From an uncultured bacterium (GTDB lineage Bacteria > Planctomycetota > Phycisphaerae > SM23-33 > FEN-1343), in NCBI GenBank assembly GCA_965372365.1, contig CBDVCA010000002.1, forward strand, positions 936 to 64,935: DNA of 64,000 nucleotides, in the 5' to 3' direction. Both the position numbers and the translations under genes were made by a program. The notes under the pieces are model-generated. The model saw only the letters and a list, made by a program, of their open reading frames with translations, was not told the origin of the DNA and did no database searches. How positions within the stretch are numbered: position 1 is the first letter of the stretch; each line of letters begins with the position of its first letter. This document shows, one piece after another, positions 2,838 to 54,028 of this stretch.

Positions 2838-3023
2838 TTCTCGGCGTCAGAACGTTCGGGTACGCCCATCCTACACGAAGCCCCCCGCCGGCGACAGCCT
2901 CGCTGTACCGAATCGAAGGCCCGGTCCGCCGCGACGAGAGGGGAGACGCATCCGTTGGTGAACTGCTCAATGCCGTTGTTCTCGCCGCCTCCCAATTTAT
3001 GTCGCACACGGCCTGCGGGTGCT

Positions 3024-3029
3024 ATAATG
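3024..3029 (+). promoter_or_regulatory. Candidate sigma70-type -10 box (TATAAT) in the divergent region between the helicase and the UbiA-family gene
   Basis: Perfect TATAAT hexamer at 3024-3029 in an otherwise GC-rich intergenic region. The upstream -35 candidate is poor (TTATGT, about 20 nt spacing). Sequence-pattern only. Confidence 0.25.
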
Positions 3030-3050
3030 ACTTGCACATCATGACGTTGC

Positions 3051-4244: not shown

Positions 4245-5698
4245 CGCTCTGTTCCGGGGACCGAGTGCCAGTCGGCGACGGTGTCAGTATGACGTGGAAT
4301 CGAAAGCACCAGCACCAACAGCAGCAGTACGGCGAGCGTCTGAGGCTTGTAGGAGTGTGCGACGGTCCACAGCGTCTTGCCGAGCAGTTCCTTCTGAGGC
4401 GCGAGGACGAATAGCGCCGCTGCGCCCAGGGCGATTTTCCGCCATAGTGGTTGCGGCCGGGTCAGCGTGTCACGCATGATCAGAAGCGCCGCCGGAACGC
4501 ACAGCACGAGGTGCTGGCCCCAACAGTAGGGAGATACGATCGCCATCACCATCATCGCGGCCGCCCATTCGGGGGGCAGATCGGCTGGGGCGGTCCGCCG
4601 ACCCCACTTGCGGCGGAATCGAATGGCCAGCGTCAGGCCCAGCAGGGCCGTCAGTCCCGCGGCGATAAGGTTTACGGCGCCATCGGGCAGATCCAGGAAC
4701 TGTACGAACGCCCAGTGCGGCCGGGCGTCGGGGGGCGTGGGCTCGCCTTTGACGACGTCATCGGGATGGGGTACGAACAGTTCGCTGCCGGGGGCGCCGT
4801 CCGGGCGGTAGGTTTGCAGGTACCGGCAGATCGCCAGTTTCAGGCATCGGTTCTGGTGCCTGGCGGGATCGATGCCGTTGGCGGTGGGATGCCCACGAGG
4901 GGCTTGGATGTCTTTGCGAATCTCGGCGCCAAAGATGCGGTGGGCCGCGATGGTCTTGGTCCATCCCAATCCGACCATTGGCGCCGCGACGTTCAACGCC
5001 ACGATGAACGCCGCCATCCATGCGGCCTCTCGCCAGCGGCGTTTGTAGAGCATCAGTGGAAGGAAGAGTACGGGGGTGAGTTTCCAGGTGGCGGCCATCG
5101 CGAGCATGAAGCCGGCGAGAACCGAACGCCGTCTCATGGTCCACCAGGCCGCGGCGGTCAGCATCGCGACCAGAATCAGGTGCAGGCCCGCGTCGTCGAG
5201 GTCTCGCGTGATCCACGGCAGCGTCAGGCCGACGGCGAAGGCGCCGGCCGCGAAGGCGATGGGTTTGTCCATTGTCGCCCCCTTGTGGCCAACCGTCCCG
5301 GCCATGCGACTCCACATCCGTAGCGACAACAGGAGCAATCCCACCGACAGCGCCCAGCAGAGGCCGCGTGTGATACGGTACGAGATCGGTCCGGACGTAT
5401 GATCGATCTCCAAAGCTTCGTCGGCCTCGCCGGTAAGGACCGACAAGGCGCCGAGCGGCGCATTGAGCAGCAGTCGACCGGGCGGATAGTGATGGAGCGT
5501 CGGCGGGCGGTCCGGCGTGAGGTAGGGCTTGCCCTGAATGAAGCCGATCCCCACCTTGAAGTGGAGCAGGAAGTCATTGTGCTTGCGTAGCACGCCGTTG
5601 ACGAACCAGACGCCGAGCACAATCATGAACAGAACCCATGCTGTCCGTCGGAAGATCTTGTTGACGTACCACGCGTGGAACGGCGCCGTGTTCTTCAT
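4241..5698 (-). CDS. Polytopic (~11 TM) membrane protein, putative GT-C-fold glycosyltransferase (DUF2029/GT87-like)
   Basis: ORF runs 4241..5761 (506 aa) with about 11 hydrophobic helices. Function is inferred from topology and from adjacency to a DPPR-synthase-like gene. The upstream ATG at 5761 directly abuts a GC hairpin. The internal start at 5698 (MKNTAPFHAWYV...) is preferred because it is preceded by GGGGAGA 7 nt upstream. Confidence 0.5.
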   Translation of the reverse strand: MKNTAPFHAWYVNKIFRRTAWVLFMIVLGVWFVNGVLRKHNDFLLHFKVGIGFIQGKPYLTPDRPPTLHHYPPGRLLLNAPLGALSVLTGEADEALEIDHTSGPISYRITRGLCWALSVGLLLLSLRMWSRMAGTVGHKGATMDKPIAFAAGAFAVGLTLPWITRDLDDAGLHLILVAMLTAAAWWTMRRRSVLAGFMLAMAATWKLTPVLFLPLMLYKRRWREAAWMAAFIVALNVAAPMVGLGWTKTIAAHRIFGAEIRKDIQAPRGHPTANGIDPARHQNRCLKLAICRYLQTYRPDGAPGSELFVPHPDDVVKGEPTPPDARPHWAFVQFLDLPDGAVNLIAAGLTALLGLTLAIRFRRKWGRRTAPADLPPEWAAAMMVMAIVSPYCWGQHLVLCVPAALLIMRDTLTRPQPLWRKIALGAAALFVLAPQKELLGKTLWTVAHSYKPQTLAVLLLLVLVLSIPRHTDTVADWHSVPGTER

Positions 5699-29800: not shown

Positions 29801-32800
29801 CCAGCAGGATGATGTCCCTGTCGGCGGTGGGCGTGATGATGCTGCCGGTGTGCAAGGTCAGTCTGGCGTCGACGCCGAGCAGTTCCACTTCGATCGCGCC
29901 GTGGGCGCTGTAGAGCCCCACGGGGTTCTGGGCGGGCGTGTCGGAGAGGTCGACGCCGTAGACGACCAGGCTGTCGGTCTCGCGGACGAGGATTTCGCTG
30001 CCGTCTGCGAGGCCCTCGGTGCGGGTCAGCACCGTCAACCCGGCGACGGTGGTGATGATGGGGTTGGAGCCGGCGTACGAGGTGTTGTAGATGTTGTCGC
30101 CGGCCAGGATCAGGTGCGATCCGGCGCCGACGAATTCCATGTCGCCGGACAGGGTGATCACGCCCTCGGCGACCAGTCGCATCGATCCGCCGCCGGCGCC
30201 GTCGGTGGTTTCGCCGGTCGAGGAGGTAATGTCCACGTTCAGGTCGATGTCGGCGGGCGTTGCGGTATTGGCGGCGTAGATGTCCAGGCGGCCGTCGTTG
30301 ATCGCGTTGATCCGCTGGTTGACGATGATGTCGCTGAGGCGGATGAGCCAATCGAGGTCATGGGCGTCGATGGTGTGGTCGATGCGGCCTTCGCCGGCGC
30401 TGGAGCCGATGGTGTCGGAGGTGATATCGAAATCGCCCCGGGCCAACACGCTGCCGTCGAGCACGACATCTTCTTCGACGGTGAAGACGAAGTCGTCGCC
30501 TTCCAGATCGGTCGAAATCGTCAGGTTGCGAGCGTCGATGATCAAGTCGGTGTCGCCCAGCACGGCTCCGCCGGCGGTGGAGATGATCTCCAGGTCTCGC
30601 ATGTGGAAGGTCGTCTCGCCGGTATCGTCGATTTCCGAATCGACGACCGGCAGCGAGATCTGCTCGACGCCGTCGGTGTACCGGATGATCTCGCGGCCGT
30701 TGACGAGTTCGTGATCGTTGATGGTGAGTTGGTCGAACGGGCCGTCGACGGCGTTCATGCCGGTGAGGTTGTTCAGGATGATCCGGTCGAAGTCGGCGTC
30801 GTTGTCGATGATGCTGATGACGCCGTCGGCCTTGCTGGAGTTCTGCAGCCCCATCTCGAACGTGTACGTCGCCGACCCGCCGGTATCTTCGAGGGTCAGC
30901 GTTCCTTCGGGCAGATCGCGGAGGCGAAGCTCGTCGTCGCCGGTTCCCAGGATGATCGTGGAGATCAGGCCGCGGCCGAGGCGGAGTTCGGTGTCGCCGG
31001 TGGCGATCTTGACGCCGGTCTTGCTGATGTCGACGACCAAGTCCTCGGTCGTGCCGCTCATATCGATGATGCTGGCGCCGGCGGAGTCGGAGTAGCGATC
31101 CTGGCCGTAGCCGGCGATGAAGACGTACGTATCGATTCCGTCGCCGCCGCTGAGGGTGTCGTCGCCGGAGCCGCCGTCGATGAGGTCGGCGCTGTCGCCG
31201 CCGGTGATGCGGTCATTGCCGGCGCCGCCGATAAGCGTGTTGGCGCCGGAGCCGCCTTGGAGCGTGTCGTCGTCGTCGCCGCCGTCGAGGCTGACGGTTC
31301 CGGTTGAGGCGCTGGCGTACAGCCGATCCTCCCCGGCTCCGCCGGTCATGGCGGCGTCGCCGGTTCCGGCGGTGAGGGTGTCCTTTCCAGCGCCGCCGTC
31401 GAATTCGACAGCCACGCCGTCGAGGCCGGAAGCGTCGAAGCTATCGTCGCCGGATCCGCCGTCAGCGATAACCTTGGTGAAATCGCCGCTGGCGGTGAGA
31501 TCATCGTCGTAATCCCAACTCCAGTCGCCGTAGGAGACCTTGATCGAATCGGCGTCGCCGGTGATGGTGAAGCTTTCGCCGCCGTCGTCGGTGTCGAGGT
31601 ACTCGCGCTGGCCGGCCCGACTGCCGGAGTGGATCACCAGCGTATCGCCTTCGACGTGGGCCAGCACCGGCTGGACCTTCGGCGCGTTGTACTCCCACTC
31701 GGCGATGGTGACGTCGACGATGGTCCAATCGACCACGCGGGACATGATCTTGCCCACGAACGGGATGGAGATGCCCACGTCGACGAAGACATAGGCCTCG
31801 ATGTAGGCGCGACCGTGAATATTGACCAGGTTGGCGAATCCGCCGGCTGCGTCGTTGCCGGTGTAGTTCCACATGGTGTCGAATTCGGAGAAGTGGATCT
31901 TGCCGTCGTCGTTGACGTCTTGCAGGTCGATGCCGGTGGTGAAGCCGATCACGCCGCCGAGGCCCGCTTCGACCACCAGCGCCCAGATGGAGGCTTCGAG
32001 GCCGATTTCGGCGCCGAAGGAGAACTCGTCTTTCTCTGCGGGGTTGTCGCCGAGGCTGTAGTCGGCGATGAAGAATCCGTCCAGCGCCAGCCAGGGGTTG
32101 CCCGTTTCGATGGCCCGGCGGATGCCGTAGGTGTCGTACCCGAACCCGAGGTCGGCTTCGAGGTTGAACCCGCCGACGGCGCTGATATTGATGAGCACCG
32201 GCCCGGCGGTGATCGTCGCGATGACCTGGCTGAACCGCATGTCGTAGGTCAGCAGGGGCATTTCGTAGGTGAACAGGGTGGCGTCGCCGCCGGTGAGCAG
32301 CTTCATCCAGTTGCCGATGTCGGTGAGGTGGTCGAGGATCTCGAATCCGCCTCGTGCGGTGGACGAGCCGCCGCCGGAGACGCCGGAACCGCTGGAGGCG
32401 CCGGTGGAGTCTTCGGAGACGCCTGCGAGGAAGTCATCGAGGAACCCCGGCGCGTCGCCGTCGCCCCGGTTGGCCGAGGGCGAGTCGGTTCCCAGCCCGA
32501 GGATGTCGCCGAGCATGATTTCGCCGTCGGCGCTGAGCATCTGGTCGACCTGCTGGACGAGATCGAGCATGCTTTGTGCGGCGTAGAAGAACTGCGGGGG
32601 AATCTGCGAGTACCCGGCCAGTTCGGCGACGAAGTTGATCAGCCCGAGCAGGTTCGGGTCGTCCAGCATGATGTCGAGGCCCGGGATCGGCTCCAGCAGC
32701 ACGTCGATGATTGGCTCGATGGGCTCGAGGACGCCGCGGATGTTTTCGGCGATCGGCTTGAGTACGTCGCTGACGAAGGAGCCGACGTCGAGGCGCAGGT

Positions 32801-35800
32801 CATAGAGGCCGATTTCCGGTTCGGAGGCGCCGTTGGCCAGGTCCCAGCTCCAATCGAGGACGAAGTTGGCCTTGAGTTCGGGCAGGCCGTCGAAGCCGTC
32901 CAGCGACAGTGCGAACTCGAGGTTCATGGCCGCGTCGACGCCGAAGTTGACGCCGAACAGTTCGTCGATCGGCGACGAGAGCAGGTGGTTGAGCGTCATC
33001 CGGCTGGTCGCGGGGTCGCCCTTGATGTCGATATCGAGGAAGCCGAACAGTCCGCTGGGCTGGAAGCCCGTGACGCCGGCCTCGCGGTCGACGTCGGTCG
33101 CTTCGAGCTTGAGGAACAGCAGTTTGCCTTCGGCGTAGAAGGGCGTGACCTGGACGTTGTCCAGGGGCTTGCCGTCGAGGAACACGCCGATGCCGATTTC
33201 GAGTTCGGGGTCGGGGTCGAGTTCGGGGTGCTCTGCGTCTGCTTTGTCGTTGGTGCTCAGGTAGAAGCCGTTCAGGAGGCTCAGGCCCATGCCGAAGTCG
33301 AAGCTCCAGTCCATTTGCACGGCGAACCCGCCGTCGACGTTGAGCGCGAATCCCGGCACGTCGATGTCCAGCGGGATATCGACGCCGGTGCCGAACGCCA
33401 CGCCCCCCAGAGGCAGGTTGAATTGGATCGCGTCGGTGTCTCTGACGATCTGGGAGCCGCCGGGGGGGACGACGCTTTCGCCCGGCAGGTAGACGCCGTC
33501 GGAGTCGTAGACGAAGCCGTTCTCGGGCACCGGTTCGCCGACGACCCAGTCCTTGATTGCCACGCCGGCGGCGTCGTACCAGCCGACCAGAATGTCGCTG
33601 ACCTCGACGGTTCCGTTGCCGTCGCCGTCGAGGATGATGTTCAGCCCGGTGGGTCCGAACACGTCCCACATGCTGTCGCGGAGGAACTCGATGGCCTTGC
33701 CCGGCCCGTTGAGTTTGGCTCGCAGGTCGGCGAGGAGCCCGAGGCGCATGTCGCTGATGAAGGCCGCGGCGCTGCCGAGTTTGTCGCCGATCATCGGGAT
33801 ATCCTGGGCGAAACTGGAGCCGAGGACGTCTTCGACGCCGCCGAGGGCCATGTCGATGCCGTCGAGGATATAGGTGGGATCGTTGAGGATGCCCAGCAGG
33901 CCGAAATCGCCGCCGAGGGAGCCGACGATGTTGGGGAACGCGAACGTCACCGGCGAGGCGCCGACCCAGTCGTCGGAGTTGGTGATGTACTCGAACATCT
34001 TCAGCAGCGCCTGGTCGCCGTAGGCGGCCGAGTTGGTCTGGATTTCCAACGTACCGATGGTGATGCCGAAGATCTCGATCGGCAGATTCACGTCGAAGTT
34101 GCCCTTCAGGTCGAAGGTGAGGCTGTCCTTGATGAGTTCTTCGCCGCCGAAGTGGAACTTCTCGTCGTTGGGTACGCTTGCACTGGGCTGCTGGTCGACC
34201 GCCAGGGTGAAGGTGATCGCGTCGTCGGTCAGCGGGTTCTGGTCGCCGTCGAGCAGGACGCTTCCGCCCTTGATGCCGATATCGAACGGCTGGATGGACA
34301 GTTCGAGGTCTTCGGCGGCGATGGACGCCCCCAGTTGCAGGCGCGTGCCGATGTCGTCGGTTAGCAGCAAGGGCGTTCCGCCGTCGTCGTAGTCCCACAG
34401 GAAGAAGTCCAGACCGCTGAGGCCTTCGGTGTCGACGTCGCTGAAGTCGATGCCCAGTTCAATGGTGACGTTGGCGAAGGCTTTGAGCGTGAGCATGCCG
34501 CCGGCGTCGACGAAATCACTGAGCCCCTGCAGCGCCGCGGCGGCCGAGTTTCCGGTCATTTCCTTGAACGTCGCCAAGTCCAGCGAGAAGACGAACTGCT
34601 CTTCGAACAGCATCTCCCACTCGATGTGCATGTTGAGCGTTTCGCCGTCGAGGTAGATCGAGAAGATCTGATCGCGCCACGGCGTCGGGTCGGGGTAGTC
34701 GTCCTCGTGGTAGGTTCTGCTGAACCCGCCGACGCCGTCGGTCCAGTTGTCGTCGTCGATGCCGAGAGCGTTCTCGATAAGCAGTTCAACTTCCTGAATC
34801 ACGCCGGCGGGATTCTCGGCGGCCTCTTCGACCTTTTCGGCGAGGTCGTCGACGAAGTCCATCACGTCGGCCAGCGAGCGGTTCACCAGCGGAATGGTGG
34901 TGTTGTAGAAGGGTGTATCGCCCAAGGCGCTGTCGAGGAACCCCAGGCCGGCGCGGATGGCTTCGATGATGCTGGCGAAGTCCATGTCGCCGAAGTTGAA
35001 CACGTCGTCGAAGGTCGGGATGATGACCACGACGTGGCCGAGATCCTTGATCGCGTCGAGTTCGGCGGCGGTCTTGTCGCCCTGGGTGAACACGTCGATC
35101 TCGGACCAGTCGATGAGGTTCCCGATGGTGATCGACAGTTCCTTGCTGGCCAGGGACGACGCATCGACGCCGGGGATCGGGGTCTCGAGCGCCAGTTGTT
35201 TCAGCGCCGCGGAGGCGTACCCTTCGAAGTTGAAGTTGAATGCGTCGATCAGGGCGCCGCCGACCAGTTCGGTGAAGGAGAACTCGCGGTCGTCGGTGGT
35301 TTCGAGGTCACCGTCGGCGTCCAGCAGGATCTCGGCCTTGGCGTACAGGTGCACGCCGCTGCCGGCGCCGGGGCCGCCGGCGGTGAGGCCGATGAATCCG
35401 AGCCGGGCGTAGAATTCGAGGTCTTCGACATCGAGCCACGCTTCGCCCTTGATGTGGACGTTGTCGATGAGCATCGTGAGGCCCTCGGTCCCGGTGGGGC
35501 CGTCGAGGTCCAGCACCCAGTCGAAGCCGGCCTCGACTTGCGCCAGTACGTCCACCGTCGCCGACGTGCCGAGTTCGGCGATGTCGCCGAGGTCGATCCC
35601 CAAGTCCAGCGGGATGTCCTGGAGCCCGAAGCGGTCGTAGACGAACGTCGAGATGCTCGACTGGTCGATCAGACCGAGGTCGACCAGCCCGTACAGGTCG
35701 AAACCTTCCACGCCCAGGGCGCCGATCGCGACGTTCCCCAGTTGCAGGTCGCCTTGGGCCAGCATCAGATGGGTGATCAGATCGGCCACGGCCACGCTGA

Positions 35801-38800
35801 CGCCGGACTCGGCGCCGAGAAGATCTTCCAGCGATATCTCCCCGCTGACGACCAGCGGACTGCCGTCGAGGGCGTCGACGGTGATCAACTCGGCCGCTTC
35901 GAGGGCCGCGACCGAAATCATCGTCGTCGGGTCGAATTCGTTGCTGCCGATGAAGCCCATCTCCAGCAGGTCACGCAGTGTGTACGTGCTGGCGTCGGTC
36001 AGCAGGTCGAGGCTGACGTCGATAGCGTCGGAGACCTGGTCGGTCACGACCATGATCTCGTCGCGCTCGGTGCGAAGCGTGACGCCCAGGGCGATCAGTT
36101 GCGAAGCGGTAATCAGCCGCGAGCCGATCAGGTCGTCGTAATCGATGTACTGCCCGGCGGTGAGATCGCCGGCGTCGACCAGGTCCAAGTCGATCAGGTC
36201 CATCAGGCCGACATTGACCACGTCGGTGTTGATGAGGTCTTCGAGCGATACGTTGCCCCCCGAGACGATCCCGCTACCGTCGAGTGCGTCTTCGTCGATG
36301 GCCCCGAGGCTCTCCAGCGTGGCGACCGACAGCAGGGCGCCGCCATTGAAACTGGCCAGCGTGATCAGGTCGAAATCGACCAGATCACGCACGTCGATCA
36401 GCGACATATCCAGCATGTTGTTGAGGATATCCAGCTTGGGCAACTCGAAGTTCGGGTCGATGGCGCCCAGTTCGACGAGCGTTTCGAAAGACGCCTCACC
36501 GAGATTCTGTAGATTGCGAAGATCGAATTCGTGCAGGTTGAAGTCGAACAGGCTCGGCAGGCGGAGGATCTGGGTTTCGGGGTCGAAGGAGATTTCGACG
36601 CCTTCGGGGAGGATGCCGGCGTCGGAGAACTCGCGGATGAAGTCCTGCACGCTGCGGATCTGGGCGGGGTCGATCTTGCTGAGAATCTTGTCGTTGAACG
36701 CCGTCGCGAAGTCCAGCAGGTCGCCGAGGTTCTTGTTGATCAGCGGGATCTCGGTCTGCATGAAGTCGGCGCCGCTGAGGCTGTCCAGCCAGTTCAGCGT
36801 GCCCTGTAGCATGGCGATGAGCGTGCCGATGTTGAAATCGCTGAAGTCCAGCAGGCGGTCGAGGTTTTCGGTGGTGAACTCCAGCGGCGGCGCGCCCGCT
36901 GTCGGGAACAAGGCTCCCTCCAGCCCCACACGCGGCGTACCTTCGGCGGTGCTCCCCAGCGCGACCCCGCCCAGTTCGGCGTAGATGGGCAGGTCGGCGT
37001 GGACGGCGTTGCCGGGTTGGCCGCCGACTTCGTCGAACAGGCGGAATGCGATATCGGCCGCCGAGAACAGCAGGTCGCCGCGGGCCAGTTCGGTTGCGTT
37101 GTTGTACGAGAGCCGTCCGCCGAGGGTCAGGGACATCTCGCCCTTCTCGGCGTCGATGTCGCCGATTCCCACTTCCAGCGGGCCGACGGTGGCGCCGATG
37201 ATGAGGTCGTTGACCGAGCCGGTGGCGGTGAAGTCATAGTGGTCCAGTTCGAAGCTCACGTCGCCGCCGCTGGACCAGTCGAACGTCAGCTTCGCCTCGA
37301 CATCCTGGGTGATATTCAGGTCCAGCGTCGCGTCGCCGTCAATCGCCAGGCCGATGTTCTGGGCGCCGGCGCCGAGGTTGATGCCGACCGATCGCTCGAA
37401 CGGCATGCTCGTGGCGAAGGTGATCTCGATCGCGTCGCTTCCGATCAGTTCCCAACTGAGGGCCCCGGCCTCGCCGCCGAGGGTGGGCAGCCAGTTCTCT
37501 TGCAAGTACTGGAAGAACCCGCCCATGGTGGGCGCCCCGCCGCCGTAGTAGTCGGTGTCGCCCTGCCCTAGCGGGATGAGCGGATCGCGGACGAAGTCGC
37601 CCTGGTCCATGTGGGGGTTGAGGTAATGGCGAACGAAGTGGCCGATATTGAGGATCGAGCCGATACCCAGCACGCCGTCGAGGGTAATATCGGTTCCCGG
37701 GAGCGTGTCGGAGAGGAAGCTGCCCGAACTGATCGCCTCGCCGGTGGCCGCGTCGTATTCGATGACCAGGTCGCCGCGGAGGTCGATAATCGTCGAGCCC
37801 AGCATATCCATCGCGAGGAAGGCCAACTCGTCCAGGATGCCGCTGATATCCCGCAGGTCGGCGTCGAAGCCGGGGCTCAACTGGCCGTCGAAGAAGTCCG
37901 TATCGGCGAACGTCACCGTTGCCAGCGGCACAGCCGCGCCGCCGGCGCCCAGTTCCAGCGGCAGCGAGATGCTGACCTGGTTGGTGTGGACGGCGGCGCC
38001 GTCGCCGTTACGGATCGAGTCGAACCCGAACGAGCCGTCGTCGTAGGTCACCGTACCGCCGATATCGAGAGAGAGGCTGCCGCCGCCGTCGGTGCTCAGC
38101 TCGATGCCCTGGTAGCTGACGCCGAGGTCGATTGTGCTGGTCGAGAAGGCCCCGTCGAAGCCGAATTCGTCGAAGTCGAACGTGAACTCGCCGGTCGACA
38201 GGTTCACGCCCATGCTGAATTGCAGCAGCGTCGAAAGGGCGATGTCGGCGTCGAGGGAGCCGATCAGCGTAAGGCCGACGTCGCCGAGGTCGGTTCCGAC
38301 GTCGAGTGAGAAGTCGTCGTTGAAGCTGTAGCTGCCGTCGAAATGGATGGTGAGCTGGTCGCCGACGATGCTCGGTGTGATAAACCCGCCGCCGAGCCCC
38401 GCCCCGATGCCCGGCAGGGTGGGTACGTAGTGGGCGGTGAGGAACGTGACGAGGTCGTCCCAGATTTCCGTCGTCGTAACGCCGCCGTCCTGTACGGAGT
38501 CGACGCCGACCCAGTTGATTTCGTCAAGGTAGTCGAAGAGGTACGAGTCGATATCGAGCAGGGCCTCAAGCCCCGAGGCGGTGGGGACGTCGCCGAGGCC
38601 GTTGTCGTTGCCGGCGCCGAAGAAGCTGTCCAGCGAGCGTCCCGTGCCCGGCAGTTGGATATCCAGCAGTCCGGCATCCAGGAGGCCTTGCTTGAGGTCG
38701 CCGATGACGCCGGCGAGGTCTTCCAGCAGGCTTCGGATGACGCTGTTGGCCAGGCCGCCGAGGCCGCCGACGATATCGGGGGAATTAATCAGGATCGGAT

Positions 38801-41800
38801 CGTGGGCGCCGGGGGTTGCGCCGAACAGGTGGCGAAAAACCTCTTCCAGGCCGGTATTGGCCGTTCCGCTGCCTACGGGGGTGTTGGCGTAGGCGGGGTT
38901 GGAGCGGATCCACAGCGGCCACGTACCCAGGCCTTCGAATTGCGTGGTGACGCCGAACAGGTCCATCTCCAGCGGCAGCAGGACTTCGAACCCGCCGTCG
39001 ACGCCGGTGAAGATCACGTTATCGCCGAGGAGGGTCTCGCTGAAGCGGTACAGCCCGTCGTTGGTGACGCCCGTGCCGGGCTGCTGCTGGAGTTCGAAGG
39101 TGATCGTCACGAAGTCGGAGTGGTCGTCCGGGTCGCCCAGTTCGGGGTTGGTGGTCGAATCGCCGTCGGCGTCGATGGTGATGGCCGGATGGTAGAGAAC
39201 CGGGTCGAGGACGCCGTTCTCGTCGAGGTCGAACTGGGCGTTATCGAAGGTCGACAGGCCGATCGAATCGAAGATACTGAAGCTGATATCGAGCGATTGC
39301 CCCAGCACCTTAAAGCCGGCCGCGACGCGAGTGCCTTGCTGGAGCGGGGCGTCCCAGTCGTACAGGAACACGTCGACGGGCTGTCCGTCGGCGCGTGGGC
39401 CGAGGTCGACGCCGGCCTGGATCTTCAGTTCGGCGAAGGCGCTGAAGACCAGTTCGCCGGCGGCGTTGATCGAGACGAGATTATCAAGACCGGCCAGTCC
39501 GCCGGGCAGTCCGCCCGCCATCAGCCCCGCCAGGGCTTCGAGGTCGAAGTTGAACGGGACGGTTTCGGAGATGTCCTGGTCGAGGTTCAGGCTGAGCCGC
39601 AGGATGTTGCCTTCCATGCGGACGCCAAAAATGTCCGAGTCGGTATTGATATCGAGCCCGAGGACGTCCATCAGCATCCCGACCAGCGCCTGAACGTCGT
39701 TACCCGGATCGTGCAGGAACCGTTCGACCTTCGTCACGGCGTCTTCGAGATCGGTGATGACGCTCAGTAGTTCGGCGGGCGACTTGTTGATGATCGGCAG
39801 CTTCATATCCGGCAGCAGTTCGTACAGCGGCGACTCGGCGTCGGTCACCCAGAACGGCAACTGGTCGATCGCGTCGCGTACGTAGTCCCTCGCCCGCAGC
39901 AGCATGCTCATCAGGTCTTGGAGCCCGAGCAGTTCGCTGACGCCGAAGACGCCCGGCAGGTCTTGCAGATCAAGGGAGATGTAATTATCGTCGCTTTTGG
40001 ACAGCGACAGGTCGTCGACGCTCAGGACGATTTGTCCGCCGTGACCGATCGGGATGCCGCCAAGGCCGGTGTTGACCTTGATGCCGCGGAGCGTGGCCCG
40101 GGCCTCGCCGGTGGTTTCGACGACCCATTCGTCGTCGTCGGCGCCGGTGATCAGTTCGGAGACGAGGAACTGGCGGTCGCCGGTGGTGGCGAGGGCGCCG
40201 TCGGCGTCCAATACGCCGGTGCGGGTGATGTCGACGTGTACGAGGCTCTGGAGCCCGGCGACGTCGGCGAGCGTTACGCCGATGAATCCCAGGCGAGCGG
40301 CGACGTCCAGATCGCGAACGTCGAAGCCGACTTCGCCGGTAGCCGCGGCGTCATCGACCCACCACGTCAGCCCCTCGCTTCCGGTGGGGCCGTCGATGTC
40401 GGCGATAAGATCGAAGGTGGCCGCGGCGGCCGCGCTGATGTCGGCGACGGCGTCGGTGACCATGCCCACCAGGTCCAGGCCGTACTCGCCGGCCAGCGAG
40501 ATCGTCTGGTCGCTGAGGCCGAAGACGTTGGCGTCGTGGCCGTTGACGTCGCGAGGGGTGATCAGGCCCATTTGGGCCAAGTCCGCCGCCGAAAGCAGCG
40601 GCTCGTTATCGCCGGCCATGATCGTATCGATCAGGTCGTCGAGGTCGACGTGATCGTTCTCGTCGATCAGGCCCGAGTCGATCAGTCGCGCCAGCGGCAC
40701 GGGGGCCAGGTCCAGCGCGTCGTAGTCGACGGCGCCCAGGTCATCGAGCTCCGCTCGGGGGATAATCGCCTCGCCGGTGAGGCTGACTCCGTCCAGTTGC
40801 CCCTGCGTCGCCAGGCCGGCGTTGATGACGCCTTGGGTGCTGATCGTCACGTCCAGCAGGTCGGCGGCGACCAGGTCGGCTTCGGTGACGGTCTCGCCGG
40901 TGGCGGCGGTGTAGGCGCCGGCGGTCAGGTCGCCGGCGGCGACCGTAGCGGTCACCAATCCCGCTTGGGCGAGGGCGGCCGCGGAGATCAGTTCGCTGGC
41001 CAGCAGTTGGCGCGGGTTGATCGAGGCGCCCGACATGCCGGCGGCGGTGAGGGCGGCGTCGGCGACCAGTCCCGGGCCGGTCAGATCCGTACGGGTAATA
41101 TCGGCGCTGAAGAACCCGTACATGCCGAGGTCCGCAGCCGTAATCAGGTGCGACTCGGGATCGCCGCCATCCAGCAGCGTCGCCAGCAGTGCAGCCAGTG
41201 GCTCGGCGGTGAAGACGCCGCTGTCCACTTCGTCTTGTGTGGCCAGGCCGGTATCGACGAGTTGATCGCCGGTGAGCAGGTTCAGCGCGATCAATTCAGC
41301 CAGATCGACGGTCGCCTCGACGAGGCCGGCGTCGATGAGATCCTGCGCCGTCGCCAGACCCGACCCCAGCAGATCGGCGATGTCCACGCCGGTCGAGTAC
41401 AGGCCGTTGTCGATCAGGAGTTGCTCGGTGATGCCCAGCCCGGCGCCGATCAGATCGTCCTTGGCGGCTCCGCTGCGGAGCAGCTGGTCCAACGTGACCA
41501 GTTCCGACTCGATCAGGTCGGCGATCGCCACGTCGCCGGGCGCTACGCCGGCCGATTGCAGTTGCCCCAGCGTAACCAGCGGCGAGCCCACCAGCGCCTG
41601 CAGCGGCACGCGTCCGCTGCGGTCGTCCAGCGAGTTGTCTCGCAGTTGCTCCAGCGTGACCACGCCGGCGGTCAGCAACTCGGCCAAGTCCACGTGCGTA
41701 CCCAAGAGCCCCGCGGCCACCAGTTGCGACGCCGTCACCAGCCCCGCCCCGACGAGGGCGGCCGTCGCGACCGTGTCGAGCCCGTTGATGGCGTCGGCCG

Positions 41801-44800
41801 TCGCCAGACCCAGGTTCACCAGCAACTCCGGGTCGCCCAGATCGTCCAGGTCCATCGCCACGGTTCGCTTCAGACCGTCCAGACTCACTTCGGTCACCGT
41901 CAGGTCGCCCGGTTGGACGAGCCCGGCGTCGAAGAGTCCGCCGGGGGTGAGCAAGTGGATCACGCCGGCGTCGTACAGGTGCGTATCGGCGACCAGATCG
42001 AGCGAAAGCAGATCGTCCTTATCGACCGTCGCGGCCGGGTTGAAGTGGGACGGATCGATCACGCCCGTCCAGACGAGATCATACAGGTGAGCCAGATCGT
42101 CGCCCAGCAGGCTGGCGGCTCCGTTGAGGACGACTTCGTCGCCGACGATTACGCCGGCGGCGTCCAGCAAAGTCTGGTCGAGTACGTCGGCGTCCAAGAC
42201 GTCCTCGGTCTGCCGTGCGATTACCGACGCGGCCAAGTCTCCCGAATCCACCAACCCTTCGTCAATCAGCGACTCCAGCGACACCAGCCCCGATTGCAGC
42301 AGCGCGTGCAGCGAAACGTTCCCTTCGTCGATCAGCCCGTTGCCGGTCAGCGCCACCGACGTCGTCAGTCCCGACGTCGTCAGATCCGTCGCGGCCATCG
42401 CGATATTCTGGAAATGCCACCTAGCCAAAATCCCCTGATCGACCAAGTCTCCCAAGCCGGCGAAATTGCGGACGATCAGGTCGTTCACATCGACCAGTCC
42501 CGCCGCGGCGAGGTCGCCGATGTAGTGGTCTTCGACCACGTCGTACAGCCGAACCTCGTGGGCGCTGATGAAGTTGTTCAGGTCGCCGGGCTCGAACAGG
42601 CTCGACGCTTCGAGGTCGCGGATATCCAGCCCGATCGCCTGGTCGGCCAGGTCGGCCTCGGAGATGAATCCGGCGTCGATGAGCGAGGTGAGCGTTACGC
42701 CGGGAAGATCCAGCGTAAGCAGGTCGTACAGGTTGACGATCGGCTCGCGGTCGGCCGGTACGTCCACGCCGAAGTCGGCTTCGATAGTGGCCGCGGTCAG
42801 CGGCGCATCATCGAAATCGAAGTGCGTGAGGAATCCGGCGTCGATGAAGTCGGTCAGCGTGACGGTGAACAGGATCGAGCCCAGCAGCGTGTCCTCGGCG
42901 GCCACCGCGCCGTGAGCGACCAGCGGGGCGTTGCCTACGTGTACGACGCGGTCGAACTCGCCGTCCTCGAACATCGGCTCCCCGCCCAGCAACATCGCTT
43001 CCAGGACGCTCTGTTCGAAGACTTTGTTAATAAACGCGTCGGCGCGGAGCACGCCGCCGGCGACCAGCGACGCGAACGACAGATTCGGGTCGGTCAGCAG
43101 CGCCTCGATGAGGATGTAGTCGTCCATCCCCGCCACTTCGCCGGCAAGCCCGTTGTCGTCGACATATTTCTGCCCGACGGCGTTGGACTCCAGCAGGTCT
43201 TCGAGGCTCACGCGGCCGTCGACGAGCAGATCGCTTGCGGTCACCAAACCCACGTCGACCAGGTGTCGCAGGGAGACGGCGCTGTCGTCCCACAGGTCGG
43301 TCCATCGCGTCAGGCCGCTCCCGACGACGGTTTCCAGGTCGGTCAGCCCCGATGCCAGCAGGTCTTCCAGGTCGACCGTATCGCCGGTGACGCCGTTGTC
43401 GGTGAGGGCCTTGTTGCTGACGGCGTTGGTCGACAGCAATATCGCCAGCGTAACGGCGGTCGTCGTCAGGGGGGCGCCGGCGAGCCAGCCTTGGGCGGCC
43501 GCGTCGGAGAGGCTGAGCAGTTCGAGGTCGAGCAGGTCGTCGAGAGAGGCGATCCGGTCGTTGGGGCCGCCCGCCACCTGCAGCAGGGCGTTGTCGTCCA
43601 GCGCCCGCGGCGAGACCAATCCCGACGCCAGCAGGTCGTGTTCGCTGACGGTCACCGCGCTGAGGTCGAAGTCGCTCGCCGTCAGAACCCCGGCGTCGAT
43701 CAGGTCGCTGGTGCTCGCCAACCCTGCGCCCGCCAACGCGGCCGGCGAGACGATATCGACGCCGGCGGCGTTCTGGGTAACGTGCGGGGCCAGCAGGCCG
43801 GCGCCGATGATATTGGACGCCAGCAGGTCGTCGCGGTCCACGCCGCCTTGGACGAAGATCTCGTCCAGCGTCGCGTCGCCCAAGTCGGCCAGATTGTCGT
43901 TGGTCAGTAGCCCCAGTTCGTGCAACTGTTGCACGGTGACGGACGTACTGGCGACCAGGGCCGCGATCGATACGGTGTCGCCGTGGTCGATCAGCGACAG
44001 GTCTTGGAGGCTTTGAACGGTGGCCGCGTCGAGCCCCACGACGTCCAGGTCCACCTGGCCGAGGTCGTTCAGGTCGGCTACGTGGAGTTCGCCGAGCGTG
44101 ACAAGGTCTTCAATCGTCAGCAGGCTCGACTCGATCAGCGCCGCGGCGCCGAGGCGTTCGAGCAGGTTAGTGTCGAGCAGGTTGGTCGCCAGCAGGTCGG
44201 TTCGCGTGACGGTTCCCAGGTCGGGGAGGTCTTCGTGGGTGATGAACTGGAAGTAGACCAGGTGCCTTAACTGGATGGGGCTGTCGGCGAGGAGCGTGTC
44301 GAGGTCGATGATCGACCCGGGGCCGATGAGGCCGCCGTCGGCGATAATGTCGGTGAGAAGATCGCCGGCGACGTCGGCGATTTCGGAGGTCTTCCAGGCG
44401 TCCAGTATGGCGTCGGCGGGGCCGAGGATGCTCTGTCGGGCCAGATCCTCGAGGGTCATCAGGGTCGAGTCCAGCAGCGAGCGGATGGGCAACTGCTCGG
44501 TGATCAGATCGCGGAGGTCGACCAGGGATCCGGAGACCAGATCGGCCAACGTCGCGGCTTCGGAGTCCAGCAGTTCGTGGACATCCAGAGCGTTCAGCGT
44601 TAGGTCGGCTACGTTCAACAGGCTGCGGTTCACCAGTTCGGCCGCATCGAACAACGCCGCGTCCAGCACCTCAGACAGCGCCGCCGTCGTCGGTAGGAGG
44701 TTGCCGACGGTGACGAGGCCGGCGTCGAGAAGCTCCAGCAGGTCGACGATTCCCTCGTTCACGATCTGATGCAGCGAGACGGTTCCGCCGTTGACCAGCG

Positions 44801-49484: not shown

Positions 49485-52400
49485 CTACCGTCCGCCGGCG
49501 AGTTTCTGCAAATAGCTTTGCAGGATCTTGCGATATCGCTGCGGCAACGGGCGCTGGCGGGCCTGGTCGATGTCGTGACGGATGTGCTTGGGGACGGGGC
49601 CGGAGGCGTCTCGGATTACCTCGACGGGGCCGGCCAACGCATCGCGGCTGTCGCGAAGGGCCTCCAGCACCGTGTCGCGCCGACGCAGGGCGCTGCGGTA
49701 GTCGTTGCGGGCCAAGTCGCCGCCAACCCGGTTCATCAGCGTCACGGCTCGCTGGAAGGCGAACCCGCTGTAATCGGATGCGGCGAACCGTTCTCGCATC
49801 CGCTCGGCGTTGTTGATCAGATGAGCCTGCCGGCCGGCGAGCCGCTCCAGTTCCCGTTGCAACGGCGGCGGAACCGGCCCTTCGAGACCCTCGCCGGCGG
49901 CTCCGCCGATCTTGCCTCCGCCGGTGGCGCCCCCGGGGGGCGTGGTCGATTCGTCCTTGATCTGCCCGGTGCTGAACGGCTCGGGGGTCAGTCGCGTGGA
50001 CGTGCGGCGGCCGCCCTTACCGACGAAGGTGTCCTGGACGAACTCGCCGGTGCTCTTGCCTTGGCGACCTTCGCCCGAGCGGCCGCTGATTTCGCTGCTG
50101 TTGGGCAGCATGTTGCCCGTGACGCCTTGGGCGTTCATCGACGAGATCGGCCCGTCCATCGCCAGCCAGCCGGCGCCCTCGTCGAGGCTGTCGGCCGCCT
50201 GGGAGGTCACATCCTGCATCTCGGCGAACAGGTCCTCCTCCTGCTCCAGCAAGTCGCCGATGAGGTCCTCCAACTCGCTGGGCAACTCTGGAAGCTCCAC
50301 GTTGTCGATTCCCCCGGGGTCTTCCATATTCCACTGCTGGCGGTCGGGTGCGTCGGGGAGCCACTTCTCGATATTGGCCGTCAACTCCTCGGCGTTCTCG
50401 CCGGCGGAGGTCATGGCTTCGGTGGCGACGGCGATCTCGACGGCCCGGGCGGCCAGGGCGTCCTTGGCCATGGTTACGTCGGCCCGGACGCTGAGCAGTT
50501 CGGTCAGCAGCGAGGGGTTGGAGAAATCCTGCTGGGTCAGTTTGCTGAAATCGGTGAACGCATCGGTGAGGAAGCTCTCCCACTTGTCCTCGATGGCCCG
50601 CAACTCGTGCAGCAACCGCTCGTCGTCGGGGCTGAACTGATCGACGGGCTTCTTGGCCAGTCGCTCCGCGGCCGGAATGACGCGAGCATGCTCGCCGGCC
50701 AATTGCGTCAAATCCGCAGCCAATTCCCGCAATCGCTCGGCGTACTCGGGCGCCAGATCCTCACCGCCCGCTGTATCGAGGCGGTCGGCGGGGTCGCGAG
50801 CCATCATGGGCAGATACGCCAGCAGCATCTGGAGGCCTTCGATGATTCGATCCTGCGTCCCGATCAGCAGGTCGCAGGGTCTGCCGCGAGCGGTCAGGTC
50901 GGCCACGGTCGCTACGACGGCCGCCTGATTGCACGCTTGGGTCATCTCGTTGGTTCGCATCATCGCCAGGGCGTCTCGGGCGGGCGCCATCGGTGCGGTG
51001 AAGGGGAATTCGGCCAGGATGCGAGCCGTTTGGGTGCGGATTCCGATTTGCCCCTCGGTCGCGGCCGAGGCGTAGCCGTCGAACGCCGCCTTGGCACTCC
51101 CACGGTCCCGGGCGCCGATCGCGGCCAACTTCGTTCGCAACTGGGTCCGCAGTAACGCCTCGATCAGGCTGTGCAATTCAGCGAATCGCTCGGCCTTCGC
51201 CGCTTCGAGGGTCTGGGGATTTTGCACGAGGATCTCGAAGCCGTTGGCCGCCGCGGCCGTTTGCGGGCCCAGGTCGCCCAATCGCCGATTGTCGGTGGCC
51301 GTGGCTGTGCAGGTGAGCACCGTACCCACGGGCGTATCGGCGGGGATGTCGATCGAGTGCGTCAGTGCGGCCTCAGTGGGGATTGCGGCCAGCGGGAATT
51401 CATGCCGGCTTCGTCTTGAACCGTCCGCATCGCTCACCGACAGCGTCGCGGCCGTAAGGCCGTAGTCGTCCCGCGCGTGGAGGGTCACGTCGACCGAACC
51501 GCCGGGTGCGACGATGACGTTGGCCGTTGGTCGGCGGAACGCCACGACGGGAGCCGCGTCGGCGAGGGCGGTGATGGCGAACCAGCCGTCGGAGTCGTCG
51601 CCATCGGGGAGTCGCTGAATCACGCGGCCGCCGTCGTCGGTGAGCCGGATTCCGTAGCCGCCGTCGGCCAGGATGCTCATATCGGCCGTGAAGGTCCGCC
51701 CATCGTCAGCCGCGACCATGGGAGCGGGGGGGGCGTTCTTCCGTCGCAGTATCGCGCCGGCCGCCCGATGATGCAGGCGGATCGTCAAGGCGACCTTCGT
51801 GCCGGCCGGCGCCCGAATCGGCCCGGCGATATCGGTGTTCCGCTCGGCGTCGCGACCGATGTAGTCCGGGTACCGGTACGTCGCGTCGAGGCCCGCTACA
51901 CCGGGCTGATCGATCACGGTGATGAGATACCCCGGGCGGCCGGAGGGGATTCGGGTATCGCCGATACGAACGAAGTATCGCAGGTCGTCGGTTGGCGTAC
52001 CCAGGGGCAGCGAGTACGTGCGGCGGTCGGTCGCGATCATCATGGATCGGGCTCGGCCGGTGGGGTTGGCCGCGTCGGTGCAGACGATCTGTCCGGCGTA
52101 GTCGATCTGCTCATCGTTGGCGATGGTCACCGTCACGGCCACGCGGCTGCCGCTGTAGACCGTCACGTCGCCGGGGGTCACGCTCAGTACCTCGACCGCC
52201 CCGACCGTCGGCACGTACGCCCCGGGGCGGAAGACCGCCGTCATCGCTCGGGTCACTCGCGGCCATTGGGTCAGGCAGAGCGCCAAGGCTATCACCATCG
52301 AAGCCGCGGCCAGCCACGCCAGGCGTCGCAGGTGCTCGGTCCCGGCCGCACGGGTCAAGTCCAGCTTTCGCACCTTCGCCGCCGTCTCGCGAATCGCCGC

Positions 52401-52784
52401 GGCCGCCAGCCGGTCGCCGGCCTTGGCGTCGGCGGACAGTTGCAGCGTATTGATCAACCCGTTGTCCAGCCCGCCAATCCTCTCCTCGGCGAACCGGGCG
52501 TTCTGCGCGTCGTTCTGCCGCCACAGCATCGCCCGCACCGGCCCGGCCGCCGTCGTCGCCGTCGCAATCGCAATCGTCGCCGCCAGCAGCACCCACCGCA
52601 GCACCTCGGGCGGCTGGCCCGGCCAGTACCCCGCCGCCAGCGTTATCGTCACCACCATCGCCGCGGCCATCGTCAGCATCGCACACGCCGCCGTCGCCAT
52701 CGCCACCCGCCGCCGGCGCACCCACAGCCGGCGCAGTTCGGCGCCGATTACAGCCGCCGGTCGGTATGTGGGCATGGTTGTCAT
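49485..52784 (-). CDS. Large (~1,100 aa) membrane-anchored hypothetical protein with two N-terminal TM helices, a large beta-rich extracytoplasmic region and a Glu-rich, coiled-coil-like C-terminal region
   Basis: TM1 is MATAACAMLTMAAAMVVTITLAAGYW and TM2 is LAWLAAASMVIALALCLTQW. The ORF continues upstream to 53312, but that 176-aa extension is Arg/His/Pro-rich junk overlapping the MFS gene. ATG at 52784 (MTTMPTYRP) is the preferred start. Confidence 0.55.
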   Translation of the reverse strand: MTTMPTYRPAAVIGAELRRLWVRRRRVAMATAACAMLTMAAAMVVTITLAAGYWPGQPPEVLRWVLLAATIAIATATTAAGPVRAMLWRQNDAQNARFAEERIGGLDNGLINTLQLSADAKAGDRLAAAAIRETAAKVRKLDLTRAAGTEHLRRLAWLAAASMVIALALCLTQWPRVTRAMTAVFRPGAYVPTVGAVEVLSVTPGDVTVYSGSRVAVTVTIANDEQIDYAGQIVCTDAANPTGRARSMMIATDRRTYSLPLGTPTDDLRYFVRIGDTRIPSGRPGYLITVIDQPGVAGLDATYRYPDYIGRDAERNTDIAGPIRAPAGTKVALTIRLHHRAAGAILRRKNAPPAPMVAADDGRTFTADMSILADGGYGIRLTDDGGRVIQRLPDGDDSDGWFAITALADAAPVVAFRRPTANVIVAPGGSVDVTLHARDDYGLTAATLSVSDADGSRRSRHEFPLAAIPTEAALTHSIDIPADTPVGTVLTCTATATDNRRLGDLGPQTAAAANGFEILVQNPQTLEAAKAERFAELHSLIEALLRTQLRTKLAAIGARDRGSAKAAFDGYASAATEGQIGIRTQTARILAEFPFTAPMAPARDALAMMRTNEMTQACNQAAVVATVADLTARGRPCDLLIGTQDRIIEGLQMLLAYLPMMARDPADRLDTAGGEDLAPEYAERLRELAADLTQLAGEHARVIPAAERLAKKPVDQFSPDDERLLHELRAIEDKWESFLTDAFTDFSKLTQQDFSNPSLLTELLSVRADVTMAKDALAARAVEIAVATEAMTSAGENAEELTANIEKWLPDAPDRQQWNMEDPGGIDNVELPELPSELEDLIGDLLEQEEDLFAEMQDVTSQAADSLDEGAGWLAMDGPISSMNAQGVTGNMLPNSSEISGRSGEGRQGKSTGEFVQDTFVGKGGRRTSTRLTPEPFSTGQIKDESTTPPGGATGGGKIGGAAGEGLEGPVPPPLQRELERLAGRQAHLINNAERMRERFAASDYSGFAFQRAVTLMNRVGGDLARNDYRSALRRRDTVLEALRDSRDALAGPVEVIRDASGPVPKHIRHDIDQARQRPLPQRYRKILQSYLQKLAGGR

Positions 52785-52888
52785 GTTTGGCTCTCGACGC
52801 GACCAATGAGTATACCGTCGATTATACACCGTCCACACGTATCGACTAACGTGTTCCGACCCCAAACAGTGCAGAGGATGCGACCCGA

Positions 52889-54028
52889 CTACCGGGTCGC
52901 ATCGCTCAGGGCCAGCCGCTTCCTTCCTATCCAGAGCAGCACCAGCCCCGCCAGAGGCGCCGCGGCGTAGATGAGGTACATGCGCCGATAGCCGGTGTGG
53001 GTGACGAGCAGGCCTCCGCCGGCGGCGCCGATCGTTTGGGCGAGGCCCACGACGATGGAGATGTAGATGGTCATGGCCAGTCCTTGGCGGGCGCGGGGAA
53101 CCTTGCGGCGGATGAAGTCGATCGCGGCGGTGTGGCTCATGCCGAACGTGAACGCGTGCAGGCATTGGGCGGCTACGATGGCCGCCAGCGGGAGGGCGGT
53201 CGCGTAGAGGCTCAGGCGGATGGCGACGGCGAGCAGGGAACAGGTGAGCATGCCGACGACGCCGAGGCGGCGCAGGAAGAATCCGGCGCAGAAGAGCATG
53301 GGCACTTCGCATAGGGCGCCGACCGACCAGATGACTCCAGGGCTGGCGACGTCGTAGGCCTCGGTGAGGAATAGGGAGAAGAACGCGTAATGGGAGGCCA
53401 TGCCGAGTTGGCAGAGGAAGATCACGGCCATCAACAGCCAGAACGATCGGTCGAAATCGCCGTAGCCGCTGACGGCGCGGTGGTGAGCGGCCTTATGACT
53501 GTCGGGCAGGGCCGGCATGAACGGCAGGGCGATTGCCGTCGTGACGGCGAAGCAGGCCAGGATCGATGTGGATGAGTTCTTGTCGATGAGGCCGAAGCCC
53601 CAGATGACCAACAGCATAACAATGAAGCCCAGCGATCCCATCGCCCGCACCCGGCCGTACTGGCGGGCCGGGTCGTCCAACTCGCTGGCCGCGAGGGCGT
53701 CGGCGAGGGGGATGGTCGATCGGTAGGCGACGCCGAACAGGACCGTCAGTGGGGCGACGAGCCAGAAATGGCTCAGCCAGTTCATGGGCGCCAGTGCAGC
53801 CAGGGATACGAGCATGCAGACCCACAGCAGCATGCGTCGTTTGCCGAGCCGGTCGGCCAAGTGGCCCACCGCCACGGACCCCAAAGCTCCCGCCAGACCG
53901 AACACGCCTTGCAGCAGCCCGACGTCGGTAGTGTTGAACCCGCGAGCGGCGAGGAAGACCTGGAAGTACGGGGTGATGACCCCGAAGGTGACGAAGAAGA
54001 AGAAATAGTACAGGGCGAACCGGGTCAC
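52889..54028 (-). CDS. MFS-family transporter (about 380 aa, 12 TM-like)
   Basis: Hydrophobic 12-helix pattern. Loop motif GHLADRLGKRRML between TM2 and TM3 resembles the MFS signature G-x-L-a-D-r-x-G-r-r. The ORF extends to 54367, but that N-terminal 113 aa is Arg-rich junk. GTG 54028 overlaps the TGA stop of the upstream gene (GTGA). Confidence 0.7.
   Translation of the reverse strand: MTRFALYYFFFFVTFGVITPYFQVFLAARGFNTTDVGLLQGVFGLAGALGSVAVGHLADRLGKRRMLLWVCMLVSLAALAPMNWLSHFWLVAPLTVLFGVAYRSTIPLADALAASELDDPARQYGRVRAMGSLGFIVMLLVIWGFGLIDKNSSTSILACFAVTTAIALPFMPALPDSHKAAHHRAVSGYGDFDRSFWLLMAVIFLCQLGMASHYAFFSLFLTEAYDVASPGVIWSVGALCEVPMLFCAGFFLRRLGVVGMLTCSLLAVAIRLSLYATALPLAAIVAAQCLHAFTFGMSHTAAIDFIRRKVPRARQGLAMTIYISIVVGLAQTIGAAGGGLLVTHTGYRRMYLIYAAAPLAGLVLLWIGRKRLALSDATR

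Follow-up and report, generated by a model that had tools for sequence, protein, structure and literature searches.

In this study, we analysed a window of 64,000 nucleotides (nt) from an uncultured bacterium of the Phycisphaerae (Planctomycetota; contig CBDVCA010000002.1 of assembly GCA_965372365.1), whose minus strand carries a giant open reading frame (ORF) of 13,765 amino acids (aa; 5829..47126, with residue n starting at window position 47126-3(n-1)), and focused on a large Leu- and Asp-rich repeat array near the N-terminus of the encoded protein. From periodicity, sequence profiles and structure predictions the array could be delimited to aa 481-2195 (1,715 aa; 40542..45686, minus strand) and resolved into units of 11 residues. 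We propose, at a confidence that we would put midway between doubt and conviction, that the array, folded but non-globular, belongs to a repeat family not described before and would form a solenoid-like rod or spacer. A first-pass annotation, made from the sequence letters, had placed a repeat array of about 1,750 aa at 40450-45800, and this assignment was borne out to within about 100 nt.

The array was bounded by anchors of 100-135 residues on each side, which are conserved in orthologues. The autocorrelation of its residue identities is highest at lag 11, with z=7.3 for aa 442-2225 and z=9.2 for aa 480-2195, and is also raised at lags 5 and 22, whereas the lag-11 signal stays below z=3 in two control stretches of the giant protein; it reaches 5.3 in a second, shorter array of the same protein and 7.5-11 in orthologues, which come from genomes of 48-68% GC. 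A position-specific scoring matrix refined by expectation-maximisation gave the unit consensus D-L-[IVL]-D-A-G-L-[VLI]-T-x-x, and the LxxAGL(V/I)xxxDLxD motif of the first-pass annotation is this same unit, D-L-h-D-A-G-L-h-T-x-x, read in another register. With 72 strong units in the array against 0-37 in shuffled sequences, and 20 unit pairs spaced by exactly 11 residues against 0-3, the periodicity is statistically supported. Units scoring above 1 bit number about 85 within the array and 0-6 per 250 aa elsewhere, the second array excepted. The units often combine to form blocks some 33 residues long, with the pattern V(D/S)LxxLLxSGLxxLxDLhDxGLh, and the corresponding 33-residue profile (V-D-L-a-d-L-L-x-S-G-L-a-t-L-x-D-L-v-D-a-G-L-v-t...) finds 22 irregularly spaced copies in the array and none in 15 shuffles. 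The last third of the array follows a 26-residue period. The array is a degenerate mosaic and no homogeneous tandem repeat.

In its composition, the array stands out by Leu, which accounts for 18.8% of residues compared to about 10% in the rest of the protein, together with few aromatic residues, 2.3% Pro and an unremarkable Gly content. Asp reaches 12.9% and Lys is almost absent. The extreme negative charge that had been noted for the array is real, at -14.6 per 100 aa, but barely exceeds that of the remaining protein (-11.3 to -12.4), so that high Leu is the distinguishing mark of the array and acidity belongs to the entire protein. The earlier description as an acidic stalk therefore overstates the charge.

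AlphaFold2 models of array slices returned strings of 6-residue helices and 5-residue turns with strands at intervals of about 30 residues. For aa 600-930 (331 residues; mean predicted local distance difference test score, pLDDT, 67), about 25 six-residue helices were predicted, each followed by a five-residue loop. The best-predicted module, aa 690-835 (44622..45059, minus strand), which is also the best-conserved one, reached a pLDDT of 81.2 and a predicted template-modelling score (pTM) of 0.72, with model residues 40-130 at pLDDT 84-95. Its repeat runs from a 3-residue strand (T-V-S) through a 6-residue helix, a 5-residue loop (x-G-L-h-T), a second 6-residue helix, a 5-residue loop (A-G-L-V-x) and a 3-10 turn (V-D-x) to a loop leading into the next strand, the strands lying at model residues 34-36, 66-67, 93-95 and 125-127. 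When the consensus is placed on this model, position 9 of the unit (T/S/D) and positions 1 and 4 (Asp) fall on the N-caps and capping boxes of very short helices, and the capping-box motif [STD]xx[DE]L occurs 55 times in the array where 13.8 are expected (z=11.9).

Relatives of the array were obtained from an exhaustive HMMER search with residues 441-1640 against 1.84 billion representative proteins (E<=0.001) and from two contig scans, a word-indexed homologue search being nearly blind to the family (one match with a 400-aa slice, two with a profile). HMMER returned 41 proteins, nearly all of them collinear fragments of orthologous giant proteins, and these fragments are all acidic and Lys-poor. 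The contig scans gave twelve loci beyond the window (GC 48-68%), five from genomes that carry the labels Planctomycetaceae, Phycisphaerae (two), 'Desulfobacterales' and 'Spirochaetota', and seven from metagenomes; L001 came from the contig encoding P0001. The orthologues are collinear with residues ~22-3200 of the giant protein at 41-54% identity, and they contain the second supermodule described below as well. When six orthologous arrays (44-54% identity) were aligned, Leu was 72%, Phe 64%, Gly 58% and Asp 50% identical, with Asp replaced by A, E, S, G or N, and each unit is conserved at its own position, the units not being homogenised. This pattern is the signature of a folded core, and neither of disorder nor of specific metal sites. 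Together with the AlphaFold2 pattern, the conservation of Leu, Phe and Gly supports the extended helical or solenoid rod that had been suggested as one option for the array.

The same data bear on an intrinsically disordered acidic linker, which would act as a polyelectrolyte brush or an entropic spacer. A bias in composition, a strongly negative charge, the absence of a Pfam match and the low-confidence parts of the 331-residue model would all fit such a linker, but a sequence with this much Leu, so little Pro and ordinary Gly is not what it predicts, and Leu at 72% identity against a background of about 45%, orthologues that are collinear and almost free of insertions and deletions (indels), an 11-residue register kept in all lineages and 90 residues predicted at pLDDT 84-95 speak against it. 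The conservation pattern has already largely refuted this explanation, which we regard as very improbable.

Array length between the anchors is 1715 aa in the window and 1701, 1702, 1698, 1698, 1734, 1733, 1728, 1728, 1300 and 1270 aa in the orthologues, i.e. nine of the eleven first arrays fall within 1,698-1,734 aa and two within 1,270-1,300 aa, and the alignment of six arrays contains only 2-3 indels of at least 6 residues per 1,700 residues. Collinearity, few indels and near-constant length together show that the array is old and stable. The two short arrays differ from the long ones by a single missing block, the last quarter of the array (aa ~1780-2195, about 415 aa; 40542..41789, minus strand). 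They belong to L005 (CAXXWC010000003.1) and L006 (CAVTHO010000010.1), long contigs of metagenome-assembled genomes labelled Desulfobacterales and Spirochaetota, the others being labelled Planctomycetota, and these two labels could reflect mis-binning, mislabelling or horizontal transfer. In L001 (European Nucleotide Archive ERZ2470813 contig, 5.2 kb, 3.4x coverage) gene calling breaks the array up into three genes with one frame change, across which the translated match to the array of the window remains collinear; the frame change is probably an assembly error, and the locus illustrates how protein databases come to hold giant genes in fragments.

Since the array had been put forward as a length-variable stalk, we considered a contingency-type element whose length changes rapidly. 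Internal block duplications (aa 655-827 with aa 1464-1650, and aa 987-1151 with aa 1781-1939), including a paralogue of the best-predicted module at aa 1517-1650 (42177..42578, minus strand; self-BLAST and module profile), the two length classes of the orthologues and the 6-fold difference between the two arrays of the protein would be expected of such an element, but the orthologues and the DNA sequence speak against it: most of the arrays have kept their length despite 41-54% identity, the second array is conserved as well (287, 281, 275 and 277 aa, i.e. 275-287 aa, and 396 and 395 aa, i.e. ~395 aa, in two loci), and Tandem Repeats Finder detected no DNA tandem repeats in the array beyond micro-repeats of 2-3 copies with a period of 8-18 nt, the dispersed DNA copies being only 60-80% identical over 25-55 nt. 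A rapidly variable stalk is thus highly unlikely. The related suggestion of an evolutionarily expandable array stands for deep time, as seen from the 6-fold difference and from the ~415-aa block absent in two lineages, and fails otherwise; growth took place in blocks and on deep time scales only, and the 6-fold difference is itself conserved.

For the solenoid-like rod that we favour, the predicted elements can be combined into the following model. Each 11-residue unit would form a two-turn helix, starting with Asp and N-capped by T/S/D (..T-x-x-D-L-h-x..), which would end at Gly and be followed by a short extended turn, G-L-h-T, with buried Leu/Val side chains. Three units would often make up a block of about 33 residues, the third having degenerated to a 3-10 turn plus a short strand (V-S/D-L). 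Strands of successive blocks would pair, winding the chain into a rod whose core would be rich in Leu and whose surface would be acidic. In this giant LEPR-XLL protein, the rod may be a rigid, fixed-length spacer that separates its two flanking domains. If about 52 blocks each contributed a rise of 5-10 Angstrom, the rod would measure 25-50 nm.

Several observations weigh against this picture. The unit spacing is irregular (11, 15, 21, 22, 26, 33 and more) and non-repeat-like islands, e.g. aa 1340-1420, break up the array, so that a single uniform rod is not assured and a string of modules of about 130 residues is possible; a 145-aa module profile tiles the array, which may partly be an effect of model length, and we do not claim 13 discrete modules. 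The 331-residue model is mediocre (pTM 0.43), the alignments behind the models are shallow (13 sequences for aa 600-930 and 12 for aa 690-835), and solenoid geometry, strand pairing and rise per block were deduced from DSSP strings only. Neither a classical signal peptide nor a membrane anchor was found when the giant protein was inspected for them. Finally, a Foldseek search with the aa 690-835 model against 350,542 PDB chains found nothing similar (best E=1.6, TM<0.25), with no solenoid of any kind among its matches, and the 331-residue model found nothing in the PDB and viral libraries. The lack of a solenoid match fits a new fold and equally fits a wrong model.

One protein beyond the giant orthologues shares the block pattern. 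P0035 is a phage tail protein of 1,578 residues with lysozyme-like, SLT and M23 domains, in which residues ~800-1005 contain about six Lys-rich 33-residue repeats with the pattern of the array, G-x-V-x-h-x-x-L-x-x-x-G-x-x-x-L-x-E-L-x-D-x-G-L-I-x-I-x-x-F; it aligns to array residues 688-810 with 28% identity over 130 residues (E=6.4e-7 against the library of 1.84 billion proteins), and its repeat region has no annotation in Pfam or PHROGs. It differs from the array in having so few repeats, in being Lys-rich instead of acidic and in belonging to a quite different kind of protein, and from the sequences the likeness may be due to homology or to convergence, between which they do not distinguish. 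As the Lys-rich repeats of P0035, a neutral version of the block, keep the pattern, the fold would not depend on acidity. A second protein, P0036 (912 residues), contains about 17 near-perfect 22-residue repeats, DLISSGLISTADLVQANVLSID, within residues ~470-860 (lag-22 z=16.5); it has no Pfam or PHROG match, and its relation to the array is uncertain.

Repeat tracts in the tape-measure proteins of phage tails set tail length. This is a parallel for a length-setting role and no evidence of function for the array. On the most far-reaching reading, the region could be a length-calibrated molecular ruler with a new fold, a solenoid whose coil of 33 residues would consist of three 11-residue helix-turn sides and which would be unrelated to ankyrin, LRR, HEAT or beta-helices. 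We consider this combination of fold and function rather unlikely, although it would explain why ~1,700 aa are held within 1% across lineages diverged to ~45% identity, and also why a related 33-residue repeat is found in a tape-measure-type phage tail protein.

The first-pass annotation had alternatively suggested a calcium-binding flexible spacer, which found no support. The 1,715 residues of the array contain no EF-hand/dockerin motif Dx[DN]x[DN]G and no Dockerin or EF-hand profile match, no DxDxD motif, where 3.5 would be expected by chance, and no RTX motif GGxGxD, HemolysinCabind being matched only at aa ~5300, outside the array; among calcium-binding Pfam families, none matched array slices even at E<=10. 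As the protein does carry a true RTX block and dockerin-like motifs in other regions, it is telling that the array lacks them, and membership in the calcium-repeat families (EF-hand/dockerin, RTX) was rejected on the lack of both motifs and profile matches. The Asp residues lie instead in capping boxes and are 50% conserved. Nonspecific cation binding by the acidic surface is possible.

A more general form of this idea is an acidic region that would remain unfolded in the cytoplasm and fold or stiffen outside the cell upon binding of Ca2+ or Mg2+, by analogy to RTX blocks and to the Ig-like extender domains of giant adhesins, which are often stiffened by Ca2+. The abundance of Asp, its rank as the fifth best conserved residue, the near absence of Lys and the presence of an RTX block and a dockerin-like pair in the same protein are consistent with it. 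Set against this, in addition to the missing motifs and families, the Asp residues sit at helix starts and not in loops and are exchanged for A, E, S, G or N in orthologues, the net charge of the orthologues spans -9 to -18 per 100 aa, and the Lys-rich relative P0035 keeps the repeat. Cation-dependent folding of the array therefore appears improbable to us.

Known repeat families did not account for the array either. Within residues 1-4600, Pfam (E<=0.01) found no match and NCBIfam reported a LEPR-XLL motif only, neither of them matching inside the array, and a PDB sequence search with the array profile returned nothing. The local pattern L-h-x-A-G-(L/I)-x-T-x-x-D-L presumably resembles the helix-hairpin-helix (HhH) hairpin of RpoA-CTD and RadA, and L-x-E-L-x-D-x-G-L what we take to be a SAP motif; both memberships were rejected. 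For HhH, no HHH family was matched at E<=0.01 in aa 1-4600 or at E<=10 in array slices, the sole related match, a weak one, being to the HhH-containing finger domain DNA_pol_lambd_f (E~0.1; 13 bits, with the cut-off at 29.8), and no HhH protein was listed among the Foldseek matches of the aa 690-835 model. In contrast to HhH and SAP/HeH, the helices of the array are shorter (6 residues), and its surface would be strongly acidic and thereby not compatible with DNA binding, the defining activity of these motifs. Ig-like and cadherin extender repeats were rejected on account of the short helices and the period of 11, and none of the Big, Cadherin and VCBS families was matched in aa 1-4600. Ankyrin shares with the array a 33-residue block with two short helices and an extended or strand element, and a stretch of the consensus, G-N-V-S-L-H-x-L-V-N-S-G, recalls what we assume to be the ankyrin pattern G-x-TPLH-x-AA-x-x-G, a likeness that we treat as a lead only. 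However, the second helix of the array is shifted by one residue from the ankyrin register, ankyrins lack the 11+11+11 pseudo-symmetry, and membership was rejected as neither an Ank profile in Pfam nor an ankyrin structure among the Foldseek matches was found.

These comparisons also bear on whether the array could be a ligand-binding solenoid scaffold, similar to ankyrin, LRR or HEAT proteins, which would present a long position-specific surface to proteins, a polysaccharide or mineral cations and thus be more than a spacer. Units that are not homogenised and are each conserved at their own position are typical of binding solenoids, and a scaffold would also explain the fixed array length. 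Yet neither Pfam nor Foldseek gave an ankyrin, LRR or HEAT match, the residues that are conserved are the core Leu, Phe and Gly and not surface positions, and no conserved neighbouring gene points to a partner, which leaves a binding scaffold as a possibility to which we assign a rather low probability.

Closest in general organisation to the proposed rod are giant surface proteins with extender regions, such as the Marinomonas ice-binding adhesin (~120 Ig-like repeats), SiiE and Staphylococcus Ebh (helical-bundle repeats). With these the protein shares a very long repeat region within more than 10,000 aa, flanking non-repeat domains and a probable rod or spacer, and it contains RTX, FG-GAP and dockerin-like parts. 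The array differs from them in its 11-residue helix-turn unit, as opposed to a ~100-residue beta-sandwich or a ~126-residue helical bundle, and in units that are highly diverged, not homogenised and devoid of calcium-binding motifs or Pfam/PDB relatives.

The array is embedded in a larger duplicated unit, which we delineated by self-BLAST with overlapping 300-aa chunks of the giant protein: aa 95-593 align with aa 3142-3661, as do aa 2183-2791 with aa 3814-4406. The N-terminal third, aa 95-4406 (33909..46844, minus strand), thus presents twice the succession of a pre-array domain, an array and a post-array domain, and both copies of this supermodule are conserved in every orthologue whose sequence extends far enough. 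In supermodule 1, the pre-array domain covers aa 95-480 (45687..46844, minus strand; paralogous to aa 3142-3539) and the post-array domain aa 2196-3140 (37707..40541, minus strand), the start of which is paralogous to aa 3827-4406. In supermodule 2, the pre-array domain (aa 3142-3539; 36510..37703, minus strand) is followed by the short array (aa 3540-3826, 287 aa; 35649..36509, minus strand), which shows the lag-11 signal and two module-profile matches, and by the post-array domain (aa 3827-4406; 33909..35648, minus strand). The shorter paralogue that had been noted in the second supermodule is therefore real, but it is 6-fold (287 vs 1,715 aa) and not 5-fold shorter. No match was found for the array-flanking domains in Pfam, NCBIfam or the PDB, both domains having been used for the PDB sequence searches.

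The giant protein as a whole contains no Cys in 13,765 residues, only 1.0% Lys and a net charge of -12 per 100 aa, and its orthologues are nearly Cys-free too. A halophilic 'salt-in' cause of the acidity was rejected because the proteins encoded by neighbouring genes are neutral to basic. The N-terminal LEPR-XLL motif, EALEPRLMLS (aa 45-55; 46962..46994, minus strand), scored above the curated cut-off of NCBIfam NF012209 (20.5 bits vs 17), and the whole protein belongs to the LEPR-XLL giant proteins by both motif and size class, although NF012209 describes the motif and nothing of the array. The motif also occurs in the orthologues L002, L004 and L005, in the forms LELRLLLS, LEDRLLLS and LEPRILLS. 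With no classical signal peptide preceding it, the motif may, as judged from sequence, be part of an uncharacterised export signal, and no hydrophobic transmembrane-like stretch was found in the ORF.

Further downstream, the RTX nonapeptide block lies at aa ~5215-5352 (31071..31484, minus strand; Pfam HemolysinCabind E=6.6e-10, NCBIfam RTX_toxin E=1.2e-17) and an FG-GAP repeat region at aa ~13016-13467 (6726..8081, minus strand; Pfam FG-GAP E=3.2e-27 in 6 stretches, and self-similarity), with a weak Pfam PKD match close to the C-terminus. The C-terminal dockerin-like pair (DTDGDVDLDDF... / DFDGNQKVDLDDF...) occupies aa 13631-13680 (6087..6236, minus strand) and was recognised from sequence and from Pfam Dockerin_1 (E=0.003), whose score of 18 bits is under the gathering score of 22.9. 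RTX, FG-GAP, PKD and dockerin-like parts are typically found in extracellular proteins, and based on their presence the giant LEPR-XLL protein is probably extracellular, i.e. secreted or surface-exposed. The pair reads DTDGDVDLDDFVILKRNFG / DFDGNQKVDLDDFVLLKQNFG, with a basic tail behind it, and its half 'G-x-V-D-L-x-D-F' is similar to the strand and helix with which the 33-residue block of the array begins. Residues ~11000-12250 are Gln-rich (8-12%). Tandem repeats of about 115 residues at aa ~6450-8065 (window ~22900..27800, minus strand), detected by self-BLAST at offsets of ~113-120 residues and 29-41% identity, have no Pfam match and may constitute a second unannotated repeat family of the protein.

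The giant gene is flanked by genes for GT87, UbiA and an SNF2 helicase on one side and by NuoF-like and ferredoxin genes on the other. An operon partner was sought in four orthologous loci, where none of the eight neighbouring proteins was matched. Upstream of the giant gene, an Arg-rich ORF of 1,275 residues (11% Arg; 49485..53312, minus strand) was matched by neither Pfam nor NCBIfam and lacks a counterpart in the vicinity of the orthologues; given the long ORFs that overlap it on both strands, it may not be a genuine gene.

Planctomycetota and related phyla commonly encode giant proteins that exceed 10,000 aa, and in Planctomycetota giant proteins with unannotated repeats are expected (bioRxiv 10.1101/2023.11.21.568195). 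The array is consequently a well-defined new repeat family in an already known class of giant proteins, and not a new kind of system. Most of the sequence of giant proteins is unannotated, and in the present case the first 4,600 residues were blank in Pfam and NCBIfam save for the LEPR-XLL motif. For 2,000 of these residues we herein define a repeat family with a unit, boundaries, a confident local model and a conserved array length, by which a 'low-complexity' stretch becomes a testable structural element. The practical gain is modest, namely better annotation of a rare family, seen in 41 proteins out of 1.84 billion representative ones. Should the fold be new, it would add a class of short-unit helix-turn solenoid, and if the fixed length is functional, it would provide a handle on the distance held between the flanking domains.

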